Shown: piece by piece, positions 7,995 through 50,214 of the stretch
Layout: each line of letters begins with the position of its first letter
Numbering within the stretch: position 1 is the stretch's first letter
Source of the DNA: Girardia tigrina
Taxonomy: Eukaryota
NCBI GenBank assembly: GCA_001938485.1
Contig: MQRK01236650.1
Coordinates: 1 to 50,214 of the forward strand
DNA length: 50,214 nt
Direction of reading: 5' to 3'
Program-made: the position numbers and the translations under genes
The notes under the pieces: model-generated
Told to the model about the DNA's origin: nothing
What the model saw: the letters and a program-made list of their open reading frames with translations, nothing else
Database searches by the model: none

Positions 7995-9027
7995 ATGGCG
8001 GCCTTTGCCACAAACTCTGACCAATTAATCTCCAAATTGATTCTGGAGCATTTTAAACGGGATGACGATGTCGAAGTATTTATTACGAGTTATTATAGAT
8101 ATTTTAAAGCAGCAGGAGTATCCGATAATTTAAAAGAGCCTATTGGTGGTAACTTTGCTTTCGAGGGAGTTAATCCCGGTATACGAAAACACGAGATCTT
8201 CAGAAAGAGGTTTTGAGAACAGGTTACGAGAAGCGTTTCAAAAAAAGATATCAAATGGATGTTCTTAGAGAAGCCGTAGAATTTCAAAGAAAAACGAAGA
8301 CGACATCAGAATTTTTTGCTAAAGCGAGGAAGATGGCTGAATCGACAGTATCGTTTCAATGGACAGTCAAAGAAGTGGAAAAATGCCTGTTATTAAATTG
8401 TAAAAACGATAACGAAACAAAGAAAGAAATAAAAATGAAGGATATGCAAGAAAAAGAAGAGATAAAGAAAATTATTAAAAAGATGGATGAAGTCAAGTCA
8501 GAAATAAAACAGGTCAATGCCATAAGACCATCTTATGCCAGTGCTGTACATCGTAACAAGCTAGTAAACAGTAGATTTCCGGTGAGAAATGGACCAAATA
8601 GAGAACAGAAAACCTGCTGGAATTGTAATGAAGTAGGCCATATGAGAGCCCAATGCCAGAAGAAGCACGAAGGGACATGTTTTGGATGCGGTCAAAAAGG
8701 CCGCATGAGTCGCGTATGTCATCTACAATGCAAAAGATGTCAAAAACCAGGCCATAGAGCGGATGAATGTTATACAAAATTCGAGATAACGTCTCCAGAT
8801 TTAACAATAATGAAAAATCGGATGGAAGAACATGGGGACAAAAACAGTTTCCACGAAATGACAGGCAACCAAGAACGAACGGAAGATCAAATCAGTATTC
8901 GAATGACTACTACCGAGGTATAGCGAGAGGACGAGAACTGTCTGCACTAGAAAAAGAAGACAAAGATTTCTTGGAAAAAAACGAAGACAGCCAAATCAAC
9001 GAGGAACCGATTTTGGCGATGGAGTAA
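7995..9027 (+). pseudogene. Ty3/gypsy gag with three CCHC-type zinc knuckles, frameshifted
   Basis: ORFs 7995-8216, 8213-8923 and 8767-9027. Knuckles CWNCNEVGHMRAQC, CFGCGQKGRMSRVC (H to R) and CKRCQKPGHRADEC. Confidence 0.9.
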
Positions 9028-10727
9028 GTTTTGTAAATCTTAAACCGAACCGTATAAGTAGTATATATGATTATTATAGTAAAAGTATGTGTAGTGGTGG
9101 AGCTGGAGTCTTAGCTGTTATCTTAGACAGAAAACTATACCACTAACAATAAAAGATAAAAGGAAATAATGTTTGGGAACTGGGTATTTATTTAAAATAT
9201 GAAGAGTGAATGAATTTGGTAGGTTAAATAGTTAAGGGTTATCTGATTGTGATCACCGCAAATAAAGAACTAAATAATCAATAAAAAAATATTAATTATT
9301 TTATATTAACTAAGTTTATTGCACAAGAACAATATATAAGTACTAGAAAACTAAATAATCAACGATTTAGGTAGTCTAAATAAATTTTGTGATAAATGTC
9401 TATGCTTAGGATATAATTTGATGAGGAATATATTTTTTTAGATTATAATTGATCTTCGGCTATCTTTATTCACGAAATTTAGGAAATAAAATTATATACG
9501 AATTGTACTAGTAACTTGGTATAGGAAATTGAATATATCAAAATTATTGAGTTGGTAACAGATATAAATCGAATAGTTATCTTCAAATATCCCATCGACA
9601 ATTGTAGTTAAAATATAAAAGAATTTTACCTGATACTGGGTTTGTTTGATTTTACGAACAACTATGAATTATAATATTAGAACTGGAAACAAAATAGAGC
9701 TCATAGCTTCATCATATATAATGTCGCATTTATTCATTGATTTTTTTATTTGTAATTTGTTTTTAGATATCGTGGTACTTAATATGATATCATTATAAAT
9801 TTTCTATTTTTGTTATTTTTCCAAAAATGATTGCCAACATGTGATATTCGATATAAAATTTGAAATTTTGTGGCTACAGAATTTTTTTCATTTCATAACG
9901 AATTTTATCTTCAAAAAACTTTTAGCAAATGATAAATCTTGAACATTTAGATTTTCTAAAAATGACGTATTGCTTATGGACCAGATATATAAAATTTTTC
10001 ATTACGAAAAATTCCATTTGCTAACTAAAAATTAATTCTTCGTTAAAACGGAAATATATTTCAATACCAAAAAATGTTTTGTTTGAATATTCATTAATTA
10101 CATAATTCAGACTAATTCCGAGGTATTCAAACTGCCCAAATGCAAGCATATAGTTTTCCACAAATGTTCATGTCAATATATTGCTAATAATGTGAGACAC
10201 AAGATTAAATGCCCCATAACTAATTGTTCACAATATATTTAGGATAAAATTATAAAAAAAATATTTGTAAATACTCAAATAGATTTTTATGAATAGTCAT
10301 CAATATTAGCAGTTTCAAGTACCGTTTGAAAACGTTTGACTAATGGATGCCCGAATATTGTTCTTATTGAAAATAGAAATTCTGTATTTCCTTGTTACTA
10401 TTACGATCAACCAAATAAAAGTTAAACGCCTCGAATCAAATGAAAGCCAATTTCAAAATTGTCAATGTATTCCTAATCCAGAAGCTTTTGATTGTCCTAT
10501 ATGTAAGGGTTTTATTTAGCCGAGAGAAGGCATAATAATGAGAAATTCAAATAATCATAAATAATTTATCTGATATCGATTTTTTTATTTATATATAATT
10601 TATTCGATATCGATTATATTTTCCTTCAACTGAAGCATCACAGTATGTATAAAAGTAATAATGATATAAAAAATAATAAAAATATAAAAATAAATAATAA
10701 ACTTATAAAAAATTTAAATAATGACAT

Positions 10728-11169
10728 TATGAAAGAAAAGAAAGAAGAAGCAGTAAAGAGAGAGGTAGACACACAGGATGAATATGAAATAGACGAAAAA
10801 GGATCGACGAAGAGTAAATCTAGAGAAGAAAGTATTTACGAAAACCTCCAACTAACGGAGAAAACAGTACGATGGATGAAGAGTTCATCAATAGAGACAC
10901 AAACAGGTGATGCAAAGATGATTATGGCGTTGGAAGATAAACAGGGGAAAATTTCGTATGACAGACTNNNNNNNNNNNNNNNNNNNNNNNNNNNNNNNNN
11001 NNNNNNNNNNNNNNNNNNNNNNNNNNNNNNNNNNNNNNNNNNNAATGTGATAACAGCAGAATTAGCAAGACATTTCAAGACAGCAACGATTAACAGCACT
11101 AATCAAAGACTGACAGCAGCAAACGGCGCACAGATGAATGTCGTGGGAGAGTTGGAAGTTATATTATAA
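10728..11169 (+). pseudogene. Ty3/gypsy gag-protease junction and retropepsin-like protease fragment
   Basis: NVITAELARHF...LTAANGAQMNVVGELEV resembles the retropepsin flap region. The catalytic DTG would fall in the N-gap 10968-11042. Confidence 0.7.
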
Positions 11170-15054: not shown

Positions 15055-16340
15055 ATATTGTGTTTTTTGAATATTTTTGTATAAACATTTTAATAAACTT
15101 CGTAAGAATTTAATATTTATTATTAAATTTACATTTTTTCATATTTTATCTACTTTTAAAGTTTATATAATTCTGTTGAACTATTTTTAAGACATTATAT
15201 TTAATTTTTTTAAATCAATTTGATTACAAGTTCGCTTACTTTAAATTTTATCCAGAACATTTATTTTAAAAAATTATTAATATTGTAATTTTATACCACA
15301 TTTTATCGTCTTCGCGTTTTTTACAATAAATTTCTATTTTTTACTTTTATAATGTGATATTATTTTAAATGTATTTTTAGTCTTTAATTCAAAAAATTAA
15401 GTCTCCAAAAGCCTTACAAAATGATTCATTATCCACAAAAGAAAATAATGTATACGATTTGAAACTTTGAGGTGAACTCTAAAAATATAGAAAAGACAAT
15501 ATCGCCCCCCTATACATACACAACATACCTATGTACAACAAACCTTCATTTTATTTCATTTAAAAAGAAAGCTTTTATAAATTAAAATGTTTTATTCCCA
15601 AGGAATATGTAAAATTTCAATATTTTTTAATAAGCTACCGAAATTTTAGATATAAAAACTTTTCAAATGTAATTTTGAAAATTCCGAATGAAAACGTAAA
15701 GATATCGTAACATTTTAAAACTTCAAATTTTAGAAGTAAATTATGTAAATGTATTTATATTTAATTTTATTTATATTATAATTATGTTGTGCGAAAGAAA
15801 AAATGTTCCTCGAAAATTTGTTTTAAAAAATTTTGTATTGAAATAAAATTGTAATATTATGATAATTCTCGGTTTGAATTCAAAATTGTGATATCGGTAG
15901 GAATGACCACAGCGAACCTAACATGGGTTTTAGTTAAATATTATGGCTTTCATAAATTATGTAATATGTAATTCATTTAATTCCAATTTAATCAATTATT
16001 ATCAGTACAGGTAAATCTTTACGAGACTCAGACATATTTATTATAACTATATATAACTGTCATCAAATCTATGTGTTTTGTTAGCACAATGGTTATAATA
16101 TTATCGTTTTTTGGTAAAAGTATTGTTTTGGCGAATGGTAGGTAAAAGCCCGAAGTTAATGTTATATTTTTTGCACAAAATTGTGGGTATACATAAATAA
16201 ACAGCAAATCCAACCTTTAACATCTTTTAAATTTTAAAATCAAATACGAGTCTTTCACCAAAACAATATTTTTCCCAAAAACCGTAGTAGGGGAAAAATG
16301 GGGATTCACCGGCACTACCCCCCCNGGGGGTGTGTAACTA

Positions 16341-16800
16341 GTTACCGCGCGGTTACCATAGCAATGGTCACAGTTACCATGGCAACGGTCGCCATCACCT
16401 TAGCAACGGTTGCGGTTACCATGGCAAAGGTCACGGTTACCATGGCAACGGTCGCGATCACCTTAGAAACGCTTCTGATTGGTTCCTGGTTCCCTAGCAA
16501 CGGTTCCAGGTCACTTGGAAACGCTTCTGATTGGCTCCTTGGTTCCCTAGCAACGGTCGCGATCACCTTAGAAAGGCTTCTGATTGGTCGGCGGTTCCCT
16601 AGCAACGGTCTCGGTTACCATAGCAACGGTAACCAAGGCACATTTTTCATAAGTAACGGATACAGTGATCCAAGATGGCTGTAACCATGGTAACGGCCCC
16701 CGTATCCATAGCAACCGTGACCCCGTAACTAGGGAGCGTAGAAAAAAGTGCTAATCGATCACTGCAGTGATCAAATGTGCAAATTGATATTTTGAAAGGC
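16341..16800 (+). repeat. GC-rich 21-bp-period array of RFX X-box-like palindromes with interspersed CTGATTGG boxes; probable subterminal region of a mobile element
   Basis: GTTACCATRGCAAC-type units start at 16352, 16373, 16394, 16415, 16436 and 16457. CTGATTGG at 16475, 16527 and 16580. Inverted copy at 38650-38814 and decayed copy at ~25715-25915. Confidence 0.85.
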
Positions 16801-16873
16801 TATAGTATCGATATGTAGTCCCCGGATCTTAAAGAAATGGAAACCTTATTTTACCGTCATAGTAGGGTGCGTT

Positions 16874-25714: not shown

Positions 25715-25915
25715 TATGGTTTCCATGACAACATTGCCAATTACCTTAACAAAGGTTCCAGTTACCATAACAACGTATCCGATTGCCTTAGAAACGGTTT
25801 GTAAATGTATCATGGCGACGGGCCACGTCACTTTATAGTACGTCACTTAGTAGTACCTTAGCAACCGTCACAATTACATTATCAACCATCAAAATTACCT
25901 TGATAACGATAACCA
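25715..25915 (+). repeat. Decayed copy of the 21-bp X-box array
   Basis: GTTTCCATGACAAC, ATTACCTTAACAAA, GTTACCATAACAAC and ATTGCCTTAGAAAC at 21-bp spacing. Confidence 0.7.
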
Positions 25916-38039: not shown

Positions 38040-38545
38040 CACGTTTCCAGCATCTGAAAGTTTTTCTTTGGAAACATATAAACATTTATAATTCGTAGTG
38101 TAAATCATTTTTCCACAAAACTTCTGTTTATCTTTCCTAATAAATCTCATTCCATCGGATGTAAGCGAGGACATTAAAACAGTTGCTAATTTATTTTAAA
38201 TTATTGGATATGCCTTCTAGTTTGGTACTTTTTTGGCTTTAAAATATCCGGTCTTTCTCTAATTTGCATTCCCTGACCTTCGATAAAGTCTGCTGATTTC
38301 AAAAATGTTAAATTGCACTCTTTGTAATTAACATTATATAATAAAACTGACTCTCCAGTCTGACAACTTGATTCTCTAAAGTTGCAAAATGGATGTGATT
38401 GTAATTTTCCAGTTGCATCATCAAATATTCCATCAAATGTTCTTAATTCTGTTTGATACTCTATCGAAATCATAATTTTTTGTATAATTTTTTTTCCTCC
38501 CAATTTTACAGGTTCACCTTCACAATCACCATTTACTTCAATCAA
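38040..38545 (-). pseudogene. Fragment of a class III viral fusion glycoprotein (chuvirus G / herpesvirus gB-like), frameshifted
   Basis: NGDCEG...CNFRESSCQTGESVLLY...C then, after a frameshift, MRFIRKDKQKFCGKMIYTTNYKCLYVS. The cysteine pattern and CGxxIxxTxxxxLxV motif recall chuvirus-type glycoproteins; recognised by eye only. Confidence 0.6.
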
Positions 38546-38549
38546 AAAA

Positions 38550-38814
38550 AATAGCACGGTGAAAAAGCACTGTGCTAGCACATTATAAATGTGCGGTAAA
38601 ATGTGCAATATCAATTAGCACTTTAAAAATATCGATTAGCACATCTAGGCACTGTGTAGTGATCGATTAGCACTTTTTTCTACGGTCCTTAGTGATATGG
38701 TCACGGTTGCTATGGATACGGTAAGCGTTACCATGGTTACAACTGCCTTGAACCACTGTATCCGTTGCTAATGAAAAACGTCCCTTGGTTACCGTTGCTA
38801 TGGTAACTGAGACC
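38550..38814 (-). repeat. Inverted copy of the X-box repeat family
   Basis: 38650-38814 is the reverse complement of 16607-16770 at roughly 85% identity by eye. It continues into TAGCAC/GTGCTA repeats down to ~38550. Confidence 0.9.
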
Positions 38815-39061
38815 TTGTTTAAAAATTATATTAAAAATTATATTAGTTTTAATAAATAAATAAAATTAAAAAATAACATTGTTTAAACGAATAAAATTAC
38901 ATGAATCTTAAATTGTTAAAATTAAATGTTTAAATGTAAGTGACTTGTCGTCACATCAGTAGTGGCAAATGTTAATAAAATATATCAAAAGAGGAAGGAG
39001 AAATGAGACTGAAGTCGACGAGAATGTTGTTCAGAATAATTAATGAATACGCTTCCTAAAA

Positions 39062-40358
39062 TAATATTTATTCGCAAAATATAAAGGAATCTTTGATGTC
39101 CACTTAAAGTTTTAAATCTTCATTTGTCATTCCTTATTTAAACTTCAGATGGTTTTTGGTCTTCGTATGCAATTTTGGTGAATTTTCACTCATCAACAAA
39201 GATGTTTCATTTGGTTCTGAATAATTAAGATAAAATAAAGCATTAATTTATTTATATATATATATATATATTTGTCTTATACAATTTGTTCATTTGATTT
39301 ATCTCCATTTTGTATCAGAAGGGGTATAACGTCACTGATGTCAGCAAGTGTTTATAGAATTTACATCAAGACATTAATGAATGGCCTCAAAATGTATTCT
39401 ATGGGGTTCGAAATAAAGTACAAAAATAAAATAAATATAATTAATTGGATGTTTTAAAAATTACCTACATTTATTTGCTTGTTGTGTGATAAAAATCGCT
39501 CTTTTTAGAATTCGCTTTCTCTTGGATTTAGCGGATTGAGTATCCACATCAACTGCGTATTACATCAAACTCGTGAAAGATTTATAAGCCGCATGCCCTA
39601 AAAGAAGTTTTCAAAAAGGCGTTTTATGTGTTGATTATTGGTCAACGGAAGTATGTGGAGCGAAAAAGACATTATGTTAAAAAATGATGTCCACATACGT
39701 TAGGCTTCTTGTGTTATAAAATGGTTATTTTGAAATTTTCTTTCTTTATCAAGCCGATTATTTAAAGAATGCACGACTTACCTTTCCTGGCCTACTAGCT
39801 CAAAATGATTCTTGTAAAATAATAAAAAAGTATTTCTTCGTATGGCATGTCGTTAGAAATATTAACTTACTTATATCTATTCTTCTGTCATAGTCAACAC
39901 AGAAAAAATTACTCTAGGAAAAAAGGATTAATCTCTCACATATAGATTTAACTGCAGCCTTTTAAGACATATTGAATAAAGTTTATAATCTCAAAAGATA
40001 CTGTATGATTACTTTTTGTGTCAGGTAGAGTGCTTATTGAACTTACCACGCAAAAGCATTTTTATGAGTTTTTAATCCTGAGTATTAGTGTTTTATTTTT
40101 ACGATGAATTGAAAGTGAAGAATGTTTTTATGAAAAGTAATCATACATTATCATTACTATAAAAAAGTACGATACAAACTCAGATCATTCCATTTATATA
40201 AAATAATAAAGGGTAAAGAAATAATATAAATTTTGTATATCATGGTTGAAACTCGAGAAATACTAAATAAAATACTAAGCTGCAAACATTACGAATTTTG
40301 TTTACAAAATTGAATGACCCTACTCATTATTTGAATGTCATTGAAACTAAAAAAAGTT
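39062..40358 (+). repeat. Copy 2 of the ~1.3 kb duplication, fused directly to the integrase remnant
   Basis: Matches 32639-34152. Confidence 0.93.
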
Positions 40359-40371
40359 GAAACTAAAAAAA

Positions 40372-40962
40372 ATATGAGAGAAAAGATAAAAGAAGTTGTT
40401 CAAAGTTGTATAAATTGTCAAAAGCGAAAAACACTTACTGCGAAAACAAAAGAAAGATATATTAAGCAATTTGTAGATGAACCTTTTCAGAAAATATATA
40501 TTGACTTTTGTGGCCCATTCAAGAGAAATGTTAATGGATACCAGTATATTTTGGCTATAATTGATCAATTTAACCGATTTATTAGCGTGAATGCAGTTGC
40601 TCACCAAGACGATAAATCGCTACAGAAAATATTGCTTGATAGCTGGATATATAAATATGGACCACCTAAAGAAATCATGATGATAGAGGCAAAACATTTG
40701 AATCAGAAATATTTAAAGAAACACTGAACAAGTTTAAGATAGAAGTATTTTATTCAAGCCCATATCACCACAATACCAATGGAATTATAGCACGATAATT
40801 TAGAACAATTAGAGTTGCTCTTAATATCAGAATAAAGGATGGAACGCATAAAGATTAGACGGAAGTATGGTCAGAAATAGAATTTATGATGAATAGTAGC
40901 ATTCAAGCCACGACAGGTATCTCACCAGTAGAAATAATATATGGAAAGAAATTAAGACATTA
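40372..40962 (+). pseudogene. Ty3/gypsy integrase (zinc-finger CxxC and DDE core), degenerate
   Basis: CINCQKRK, PFQKIYIDFCGPF, YILAIIDQF, WIYKYGPPKEI, SSPYHHNTNGII. Confidence 0.93.
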
Positions 40963-47037: not shown

Positions 47038-47082
47038 AGTAGTAATAAATTAGCACGGATACCTCCCAACCCTGAAATATTA

Positions 47083-48324
47083 ATATTCAAAAAATCGAAT
47101 ATTTTATCGATAAAACGCATAAAATATTCAAAAAATCGAATATTTTATCGATAAAACGCATATAATATTCAAAAAATCAAATATTTTTTCGATAAAACAC
47201 TATTATTATTCAAAATCGAATATTTTATTATTAAAACGTATATAATATTTTAAAAATGTTATATTATTTATTTCAAAAAGTGGATACCAAAAAGCCATAC
47301 CGTAGTATGGCTTGTTTGATATAAAAAATGTTATATTATTTATAACAAAAATGAGTAATCGGATATTTTATCGATAAACACTATAAAAATTCAGAAAAAT
47401 CGATTTTTTTTGATTTTTCTTTTTTTGTTTTTTTTGTTTTTTTGTTTTTTTTCTTTTTGCATTTGATTTGATTTGATTTGATTTGATTTTGAGATCTCGG
47501 CCGTCTTTAGGAACCGGTTCCAAGAGCAACTGACTGTCGATTTTTCTAATATTCTGAGATTATCTAGAATCTCCCAGAATATTATATTATCAACGCGCAG
47601 CAATAGCATTAAGATAACAGGTCTNNNNNNNNNNNNNNNNNNNNNNNNNNNNNNNNNNNNNNNNNNNNNNNNNNATAAAATATTCAAAAAATCGAATATT
47701 TTATCGATAAAACGCATAAAATATTCAAAAAATCAAATATTTTATCGATAAAATACTATTAATATTCAAAAAATCGAATATTTTATCGATAAATCGCATA
47801 AAATATTCAAAAAATCGAATATTTTATCGATAAAACGCATATAATATTCAAAAAATCGAATATTTTTTCGATAAAACACTATTATTATTCAAAATCGAAT
47901 ATTTTATTATTAAAACGTATATAATATTTTAAAAATGTTATATTATTTATTTCAAAAAGTGGATACCAAAAAGCCATACCGTAGTATGGCTTGTTTGATA
48001 TAAAAAATGTTATATTATTTATAACAAAAATGAGTAATCGGATATTTTATCGATAAACACTATAAAAATNNNNNNNNNNNNNNNNNNNNNNNNNNNNNNN
48101 NNNNNNNNNNNNNNNNNNNNNNNNNNNNNNNNNNNNNNNNNNNNNNNNNNNNNNNNNNNNNNNNNNNNNNNNNNNNNNNNNNNNNNNNNNNNNNNNNNNN
48201 NNNNNTTTAGGAACCGGTTCCAAGAGCAACTGACTGTCGATTTTTCTTATATTCTGAGATTATCTAGAATCTCCCAGAATATTATATTATCAACGCGCAG
48301 CAATAGCATTAAGATAACAGGTCT
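47083..48324. repeat. ~41-bp tandem repeats in the Polinton terminal region, inside a block present twice (47083-47624 and ~47675-48324)
   Basis: Unit AATATTCAAAAAATCGAATATTTTATCGATAAAACGCATAA. The larger block duplication spans N-gaps. Confidence 0.85.
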
Positions 48325-48997
48325 GCAGCCCCATTAAATAATGTATTGAACTACTGGAGAGTTGCTCTCATTAATACCTTAGGTGCATGATATTATGTTA
48401 TAAGTTTTAATGTATCTATTTACATACCGTTTTTTATTAATTATTAAAAATAAAATTGATTGATAAAATACGAATTAATAATAAATAAAATTCACAAAAA
48501 TGTATAAAAAATAAAGTTTGAATTGAAATATAATCATATAAATTGAAATATCTAAAAAAATCAACATTAATTACTGATAAAATTAATAAGTAATATATTT
48601 TAAAAATGTATATATTTTAATTTTTTAGTGGTAATATGAATATTTTTTTTACCTTTTTGTTTGTAAATTTAATTAAATAATGTTTATGAACATTTTGTAT
48701 AAAAAACTACATAAAATATTCTTAAAATTGAAAAATTCATCGATTTTACCTATTTTGCAAAATTTTCAAGTTTTTTCTAAATTTAGAATATTTTAAATGA
48801 TTCTTATGAAGAAAAATAGAATCTATGTATATTTCTAACAAATCTTCTCCACTTTTATAAAAAATTTTTACAGACCATTTTATTTTAAAGAAAAATGGGT
48901 TTTTGTAAGTTAATCAGGGTTAATCTGTTAAATCAAATAATTTTTTAGAGGAAATTTGCGAAAAATTTTTAAAAAATGTTATAATGTTCTAATAAAA

Positions 48998-49453
48998 ATG
49001 GAAGCAAGTAAAATCGGTGAGGAAATTCGCATGGAGAAAAGAATATTTCGTGAAAATATTTTGAGAAGATATATTCATGAATTTAAGATTAATCCGCAAT
49101 TGAAGCATAAGGATTTATGTAATAAAGTTGGTGTATCAATTCATGTTTTTCGTCGAATTCGTCAAGATTTCGGTATGATGGAAAGTATGAAATCATATGA
49201 ACGAAAGTTACCAAGTATTTCAAAACGAAAACGAAAACCAGCGGAGAAAATATCTGAAAAACAAAAAATAGATGTAAATTCTCAAATGAATAATTTAACA
49301 ATTAATCAACAAAAACGCGAAAAAAGAAAAAAAGAAGTTGTTATTGGATCTGGAAAAACAATAATACAAGATAATGTTTCCGCTGTTCCATCTGATAATG
49401 AGGATGATCATAACATTGATGAAAGTAGTGCGGATGAAGAGAAAAAATTATAA
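48998..49453 (+). CDS. Polinton ORF, putative helix-turn-helix DNA-binding protein with basic NLS-like stretches and acidic tail (151 aa)
   Basis: NPQLKHKDLCNKVGVSIHVFRRIRQDFGM is HTH-like; KRKRK; AAAATG start context. Confidence 0.7.
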   Translation: MEASKIGEEIRMEKRIFRENILRRYIHEFKINPQLKHKDLCNKVGVSIHVFRRIRQDFGMMESMKSYERKLPSISKRKRKPAEKISEKQKIDVNSQMNNLTINQQKREKRKKEVVIGSGKTIIQDNVSAVPSDNEDDHNIDESSADEEKKL

Positions 49454-49466
49454 TATAATAATAAAA

Positions 49467-49964
49467 ATGGAACAAATAAATAAAAATTCATCTTTGGAAT
49501 ACGCGAAGAAAGATAGACGTGTAAAAGAGATTGCTCGTAAAAAAGAAAGTAAATTTATGGAGTTATCACTCATAGATCAAAGTGCTGTTGCTCGTAAAAA
49601 TATTTATGAGATGGAAGTTCTCAGTATGGCAATGGAATATATTTCCAACACAGCAATGGGATTGGTTGATGAATTGGAAGAAAAAGATATTGAATTGGAA
49701 TCTTCAAAGAAAAAATTGATTAAAGCGGAAAATATATTAGGTAGTACTGAAAATAAAAAAGCACAAAATGATTATTTTAATTTTTCTAAAGAAGTAGATA
49801 AGGAAAAAACTAAATCTCTTTTGGAAAATAAAAAATGGACTCCTCAAAAACAAGAAAGCTTCAAGCAAGCTTATTTGAAATATAATCTGGATGTAATGAA
49901 TAAATTTTTATCGGGAGGAAATAATTACCAGGAAGATTCAATGGATAACCATGGAAAAATATGA
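49467..49964 (+). CDS. Polinton ORF, uncharacterised coiled-coil-rich protein (165 aa)
   Basis: Intact E/K-rich ORF tightly packed between the HTH ORF and the ATPase; AAAATG start context. Confidence 0.7.
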   Translation: MEQINKNSSLEYAKKDRRVKEIARKKESKFMELSLIDQSAVARKNIYEMEVLSMAMEYISNTAMGLVDELEEKDIELESSKKKLIKAENILGSTENKKAQNDYFNFSKEVDKEKTKSLLENKKWTPQKQESFKQAYLKYNLDVMNKFLSGGNNYQEDSMDNHGKI

Positions 49965-50048
49965 AAAACTTAAGAAAACTTTACTTTTTAATAAAATATA
50001 GTGTAAAATACCCGAAAATGCGGTATTTTTCTAATAAAAAATAAAAAA

Positions 50049-50214
50049 ATGACGAATGAAAAACTAAATATTTTAACAATGTACGAGTCGAAATTCAATA
50101 ACAAATTATTCCCTAAAAATTTTCGAATTTTAATAGTTGGTGAATCGGGATGTGGTAAAAATGTTTTACTAGCGAAAATGTTATTGGAGGATAATTTTTT
50201 AGATTTCAATAATT
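50049..50214 (+). CDS. Polinton A32/FtsK-like genome-packaging ATPase, 5' partial
   Basis: MTNEKLNILTMYESKFNNKLFPKNFRILIVGESGCGKNVLLAKMLLEDNFLDFNN: Walker A GxxGxGK in a typical Polinton ATPase context. Confidence 0.85.
   Translation, partial: MTNEKLNILTMYESKFNNKLFPKNFRILIVGESGCGKNVLLAKMLLEDNFLDFNN

Follow-up and report, generated by a model that had tools for sequence, protein, structure and literature searches.

A probable one-off junction between a gB-like errantivirus env fragment and an X-box-bearing Maverick terminal repeat in Girardia tigrina

Anatomy of the 38-kb region

We analysed a 50,214-nucleotide stretch of AT-rich Girardia tigrina DNA (contig MQRK01236650.1, positions 1 to 50,214; hereafter the window), in which a fragment of an envelope (env) gene lies beside a repeat carrying X-box-like palindromes. 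The region around 38 kb reads as follows on the minus strand.

38045-38542 (-): frameshifted internal env fragment, placed on a naturally open env copy
38204-38614 (-): chimeric frame running from stop to stop over 137 codons, its first 23 residues read from repeat and filler and those after them from env
about 38540-38561 (-): junction filler of 19-22 bp, resembling the adjacent repeat end and unique in the G000 genome assembly
38562-38821 (-): 260-bp internal piece of a Maverick terminal inverted repeat (TIR)
38706, 38727 and 38794 (span 38706-38807; no strand assigned): three RFX X-box-like palindromes inside the repeat piece, matching the published consensus

The first-pass annotation had described a Cys-patterned open reading frame followed, after a frameshift, by a second motif, and both are there: the stretch CEG..., CNFRESSCQTGESVLLY...C falls in the stop-to-stop frame at 38204-38614 (-), and FCGKMIYTTNYKCLYVS lies in a second, downstream frame, which holds the CGKMIY motif, with the break near 38,214. 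Homology to env is limited to 38045-38542. Reading through repeat and filler DNA accounts for the first 23 residues of the longer frame, and genome matches begin at residue 24-27 in most rows. The repeat had been described as running straight into the reading frame; the two are indeed adjacent on the minus strand, but 19-22 bp of filler separate them, and the repeat piece is an internal part of a TIR, cut at both sides and without a terminus.

The rest of the window carries further mobile-element debris and isolated frames.

2329-2640 and 31326-31673 (+): mariner-type transposase pieces
8174-11166 (+): gag debris
27703-28038 (+): mitochondrial-carrier fragment
35021-36511 (+): intronless frame of 497 codons, encoding a multi-pass membrane protein for which Pfam gave nothing above chance
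36700-37500 (+): non-LTR reverse transcriptase-like remnant, recognized by eye
40335-40900 (+): gypsy integrase debris

The env fragment derives from a class III-type fusogen

The fragment had been assigned by eye to the class III, gB/chuvirus-like fusogens, and profile and fold comparisons of a more complete copy agree. A Pfam search with the window fragment alone returned no match, so the family assignment rests on longer copies. The assembly holds at least 151 matches to the fragment (best 150 scored of 3782 candidates), and the closest env copies among the matches scored are 92-95% identical to the window piece at the DNA level. One naturally open copy matches Pfam PF24664, the Monjiviricetes fusion glycoprotein, with E 8.4e-85; a sequence search of the PDB with the same copy gave chance matches only. 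Its structure model (594 residues, 83 sequences in the alignment, pLDDT 89.3) has a gB-like fold with a long beta fusion domain and a central helix. Against PDB structures, all matches listed for the model were herpesvirus gB (best E 3.9e-14, TM about 0.41); against viral models, chu-like glycoproteins came first (E 1.5e-41, TM up to 0.70). The open copy has a hydrophobic segment at either end, which fits a signal sequence and a C-terminal membrane anchor. By profile and predicted fold, then, the env protein is a class III fusogen of the chuvirus-G/herpesvirus-gB type, sharing with the chuvirus/Monjiviricetes glycoproteins its Pfam family and its best viral structural matches at an identity of about 17-22%. 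The window piece corresponds to about residues 128-290 of the model and lacks the signal peptide, the central helix and the membrane anchor.

A Ty3/gypsy gag-env-pol element as the carrier of env

Longer copies place this env within a retroelement. In two loci (L025 and L034), env, protease and reverse transcriptase (RT) share one frame, followed by RNase H and integrase, both gypsy-type; comparison with PDB structures puts the RT nearest to Ty3 (E 9e-30). On the 5' side, env is preceded by gag with its zinc knuckles and by ubiquitin-like domains (one or two of them), so that the element runs from gag through env, protease and RT to RNase H and integrase. Among 1333 homologues at E up to 0.001, 15 were scanned for domains: protease follows env in the same ORF in eight, and RT is present as well in five of those eight. 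In one homologue (P0009), env to integrase form a single ORF of 2627 amino acids, with a weak zinc knuckle (E 6.1) at its start. A FastTree phylogeny built on 33 of the 83 aligned rows groups the G000 env with all nine such polyproteins at a support of 100. A polypurine tract (PPT) is followed by TG and about 1.26 kb common to two copies, which we regard as a putative LTR, and a PBS-like word was spotted by eye. No copy with both LTRs was seen among the loci fetched, nor, in this fragmented and partly masked assembly, a complete errantivirus or a complete Maverick in one piece.

By these features, the carrier is a Ty3/gypsy gag-env-pol element and neither BEL/Pao nor Maverick. In BEL/Pao elements with a chuvirus-type env, env follows pol. 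A BEL/Pao carrier was ruled out by the RT, nearest to Ty3, and by the position of env 5' of protease; unlike BEL/Pao elements with a chuvirus-type env, the carrier is Ty3/gypsy and has env 5' of pol. Nematode ERVs with a continuous gag-env-pro-pol ORF were reportedly described by Sacco et al. in 2022; the carrier resembles them in having env inside a polyprotein, 5' of protease, and differs in being from another phylum.

The layout of the carrier is already published for flatworms: GAG-ENV-POL errantiviruses with an HSV/gB-type env are reported from Platyhelminthes, Nematoda and Bryozoa, GAG-ENV-POL elements are not monophyletic, and the supplement lists nine flatworm elements, six of them from Schmidtea (Smed_errantivirus_1-6; PMC13524379). 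The present family is like those six in its Ty3/gypsy pol, in its gB-type env between gag and pol and in its many copies. Counted by eye, 39 of 60 residues of the window fragment match the printed env row of Smed_errantivirus_1 (PMC13524379), and the closeness of the env to Schmidtea elements would fit a freshwater planarian host. Unlike the Schmidtea set, the window holds a broken 0.5-kb piece only.

In the parent element, env would be made inside the polyprotein and enter the endoplasmic reticulum via an internal signal sequence; it would be anchored by its C-terminal membrane segment while Pol stays cytosolic until the protease cuts, and it may help the element to spread from cell to cell by acting as a class III fusogen.

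Additional genes of the errantivirus family

Copies of the carrier hold further features on either side of env-pol.

L134:2225-3550 and L026:7249-8517 (-): ubiquitin/SUMO-like domains, one or two in number, after the gag zinc knuckles and ahead of env
L027:7182-8186, L131:4777-5499 and L135:4296-4601 (-): FN3-like type I membrane protein, also in P0153, P0007 and P0009
L027:5660-6022 and L131:2557-4320 (-): DEDD exonuclease ORF, also in L133 and L135

The frame continues beyond the integrase into a signal-like stretch, then beta-rich domains, about three in number, and finally a membrane anchor. This FN3-like protein has at least 152 matches in the assembly (best 150 scored of 1205 candidates), and the post-integrase layout is kept in diverged subfamilies (28-39% identity) and in the homologues P0007 and P0009. 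Its FN3 identity is modestly supported: an atlas search scored 0.96 at low recognition, Pfam fn3_2 gave E 0.69, the model reached pLDDT 43 with structural matches mostly to FN3 arrays, and sequence searches found one close relative only. Past the FN3-like gene, and ahead of the putative 3' LTR, all four copies examined downstream (L027, L131, L133 and L135) have a separate ORF for a DEDD (RNase_T family) exonuclease, with Pfam matches in two and recognition by eye in the others.

By analogy with herpesvirus gD/gH, we tentatively suggest that the parent errantivirus might encode a two-glycoprotein entry system in one polyprotein, with the gB-like fusogen joined by the FN3-like protein as a candidate attachment or trigger protein, although we consider this rather doubtful; alternatively, the FN3-like protein could be a cytokine-receptor-like decoy. 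Relative to the main text of PMC13524379, the G000 errantivirus family adds the ubiquitin-like domains after gag, the FN3-like membrane protein and the DEDD exonuclease ORF. The words 'fibronectin', 'ubiquitin' and 'polyprotein' are absent from that main text, to which the word search applies, so the Schmidtea elements may carry FN3-like or ubiquitin-like features unreported there. We found no prior report linking errantiviruses to FN3; subscription papers, Repbase, and bioRxiv or eLife supplements may hold one.

A separate Maverick family as the source of the X-box repeat

The X-box repeat that the first-pass annotation had noticed is real. Allowing one mismatch or fewer, the window holds nine X-box matches against 0.03 expected, and none of 100 shuffles reached nine; two of the nine lie in the 38-kb region, where a looser pattern adds a third. 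Among 2553 repeat candidates in the assembly, of which 40 were scored, all 19 loci fetched are 91-94% identical to the window piece, and all 19 share further repeat sequence on the inner side of the point at which filler begins in the window. Three whole ends place the repeat piece from 130-220 to 390-480 bp from the terminus of a TIR of at least 0.9 kb with AG...CT ends. In six two-ended loci, the 6-bp flanks agree at six of six positions twice, five of six twice, four of six once and one of six once. The repeat adjoins a pPolB gene (PF03175, E 8.6e-22) with an endonuclease VII insert and an integrase (rve, E 5.5e-13) with a chromodomain. Beside the X-box TIRs there are also a putative double-jelly-roll capsid, with a Pfam E of 4e-4 that falls short of the cut-off, and, by eye, a protease and a minor capsid; no ATPase was seen in the X-box Maverick loci fetched. 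The X-box repeat is thus the TIR of a separate Maverick family, and a very abundant one. The window holds two further copies of its ends.

16286-16813 (+): another piece of this repeat family, independent of the one at 38 kb, that keeps its AG terminus, an X-box array and CCAAT-type units
25716-25911 (+): further X-box Maverick TIR

Three other identities were tried for the repeat. A retroelement LTR was rejected on two grounds, the putative LTR behind the PPT having no X-box and the repeat having inverted ends with 6-bp duplications. Kolobok- or Helentron-type ends, suggested by TTAA-like flanks, were dropped once pPolB, a putative capsid and 6-bp duplications were found. Nor are the 16.3-kb and 38.6-kb repeats the two ends of one 22-kb Maverick: their complementarity is 86% over 160 nt, against the 91-94% identity of the 38.6-kb piece to other loci, and the DNA between the two has no remnant of a Maverick gene.

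The palindromes of these TIRs fit the RFX X-box consensus GTNRCC N0-3 RGYAAC (10.1101/2022.11.11.515474) and are putative RFX sites by sequence. At 16286-16813 and 25716-25911 of the window and in nine loci with X-box TIRs (L066, L076, L077, L082, L084, L091, L100, L119 and L129), the TIRs carry two to seven X-boxes, many spaced by 21 bp, within about 500 bp of the end, and CTGATTGG units of the CCAAT/Y-box type accompany them in four of the nine loci. The family is like Maverick/Polinton elements (PMC8097293) in its AG...CT ends, 6-bp duplications, pPolB, integrase and putative capsid, with a TIR of at least 0.9 kb; unlike them, it has X-box tandems in the TIRs, CCAAT-type units in some copies, and the terminus AGTAGG rather than AGTAGT. 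We found no prior report linking RFX to Maverick/Polinton elements; subscription papers, Repbase and supplements may hold one.

Several short two-ended derivatives of the family, 1.2-4 kb long and with target duplications, occur in the assembly; two of them keep pPolB pieces only.

L044:1339-2572, L079:6320-9396 and L091:3641-7595: short two-ended Maverick derivatives

The assembly has three or more other pPolB families (L056, L062/L063 and L120), which showed no link with the X-box repeat over the stretches fetched. Elsewhere, a fragment at L030:8212-8724 (+), which we take by eye to resemble the N-terminal region of host Raptor, lies between a Maverick terminus and an errantivirus 5' end.

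The annotation had cited the presence of a Maverick in the window when suggesting a possible Maverick lineage. The coding Maverick that begins at 47038 is of another family, without X-boxes.

47038-50214 (+): left end of a second Maverick family, with AGTAGT terminus, 41-bp tandem repeats and no X-boxes
48941-49450: HTH-like ORF in the second Maverick
49365-49961: multi-copy ORF in the second Maverick, with at least 152 matches

The start of a Walker A ATPase of this second Maverick was seen by eye at the window edge.

The junction is unique and env is probably not part of the Maverick

The first-pass annotation had proposed a single enveloped, virus-like element whose termini carry the RFX array, so that the 38-kb region would be a deletion derivative of an enveloped element with X-box termini, possibly a Maverick like the nematode Mavericks with MFUS-1. 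Its placement of the array in Maverick-lineage termini stands, the repeat being a Maverick TIR, but a single element holding both parts is not supported. A 29-base junction pattern matches the assembly once at two mismatches or fewer, and among 41 DNA matches the window alone spans the junction. The annotation had offered the co-occurrence of env copies with the X-box repeat as a check: of the 19 env loci that are closest (44 kb), not one has an X-box, and env copies carry gag and pol. An env profile run over 94 loci (matches to TIR, pPolB and capsid with their flanks, other Maverick families included) gave one match, which lies outside the terminus, so that no env was found inside these Maverick loci; nor was a fusogen gene seen to recur between TIRs in the loci examined. 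Finally, 17 Maverick query proteins found no match in the window.

Some observations count against reading the two as separate elements. The window has its env inward of the repeat, and among 12 longer contigs that bear env or FN3 sequence (138 kb) three also hold an X-box array; in a further locus (L038), an env piece lies about 1 kb from a Maverick terminus. In all four of these cases (the three contigs and L038), the retroelement is outside the terminus, and one of the three contigs shows a Maverick end set into the gag-env region. By plain counts, the array density on the 12 retroelement contigs is no higher than the three arrays in the 50-kb window.

The enveloped Maverick draws some support from the repeat being a Maverick TIR with env inward of it and from the gain of a gB-like fusogen by nematode Mavericks (10.1101/2022.07.12.499685). 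It is nevertheless largely refuted, and we give it next to no weight: the env fragment is 92-95% identical to gypsy env copies, the junction is unique, no env was found inside the Maverick loci examined, the TIR piece lacks a terminus and the Maverick query proteins match nothing in the window. Compared with the nematode Mavericks carrying MFUS-1 (10.1101/2022.07.12.499685), a Maverick and a gB-like fusogen are both present here, in different elements.

A related proposal is that the region is a snapshot of cargo capture, in which a non-autonomous Maverick took up env DNA and moved, the first step of the nematode route. The short two-ended derivatives of the same Maverick and the position of env inward of the TIR would suit it. 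We judge it very improbable, however, given a single copy whose env piece is 0.5 kb long and frameshifted, with no partner TIR with target duplication seen; since the terminus is lost, the env-repeat junction piece is not mobilisable now.

Assemblers mostly join repeats where sequence is shared. An assembly chimera of two high-copy repeats, absent from the animal, would be compatible with a fragmented assembly of 255,254 contigs and with the sequencing runs, among whose listed contigs (four runs) none bridges the junction, although contigs drop rare variants and the runs may come from other individuals. In keeping with a meeting of two separate elements, the summed depth of contigs differs about 40-fold and 120-fold between the two sides of the junction in two DNA runs, and one contig of run X3 continues in env where the window has repeat. 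Runs X3 and X9 have separate contigs over env and over repeat; that these are RNA runs is a guess, so we make no claim about expression. Runs with small shares were left out. Against a chimera, the 19-22 bp of filler match neither parent at that place, where assemblers would usually have joined shared sequence. We consider this explanation improbable, if less so than either Maverick-based one.

We therefore favour, with considerable confidence, a one-off chimeric junction made of the debris of two unrelated, abundant mobile elements and encoding nothing that works. Templated inserts mark alternative end joining. A single event would have made the junction, either a deletion within nested insertions or the repair of a break by end joining, since the filler resembles the adjacent repeat; it may be a copy of nearby repeat sequence, possibly a templated insertion at the repaired break.

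Discussion

The junction itself, as mobile-element debris, is of no import. Had an enveloped Maverick outside nematodes been true, it would have meant a second origin of a vector for horizontal transfer, a reading that our analysis does not uphold. Two leads remain from what the parent elements carry. PMC13524379 describes as unknown how gB-type errantiviruses get into cells when gD, gH and gL are lacking; the FN3-like membrane protein would be one candidate answer. According to PMC8532177, whose passages on the subject do not mention RFX, Polintons and LTR elements of planarians lose their silencing as cells differentiate, Polintons on the way to epidermis and brain. The X-box arrays in the Maverick termini, to judge from their sequence, may offer a testable cause of the desilencing of Polintons, through RFX in ciliated cells.
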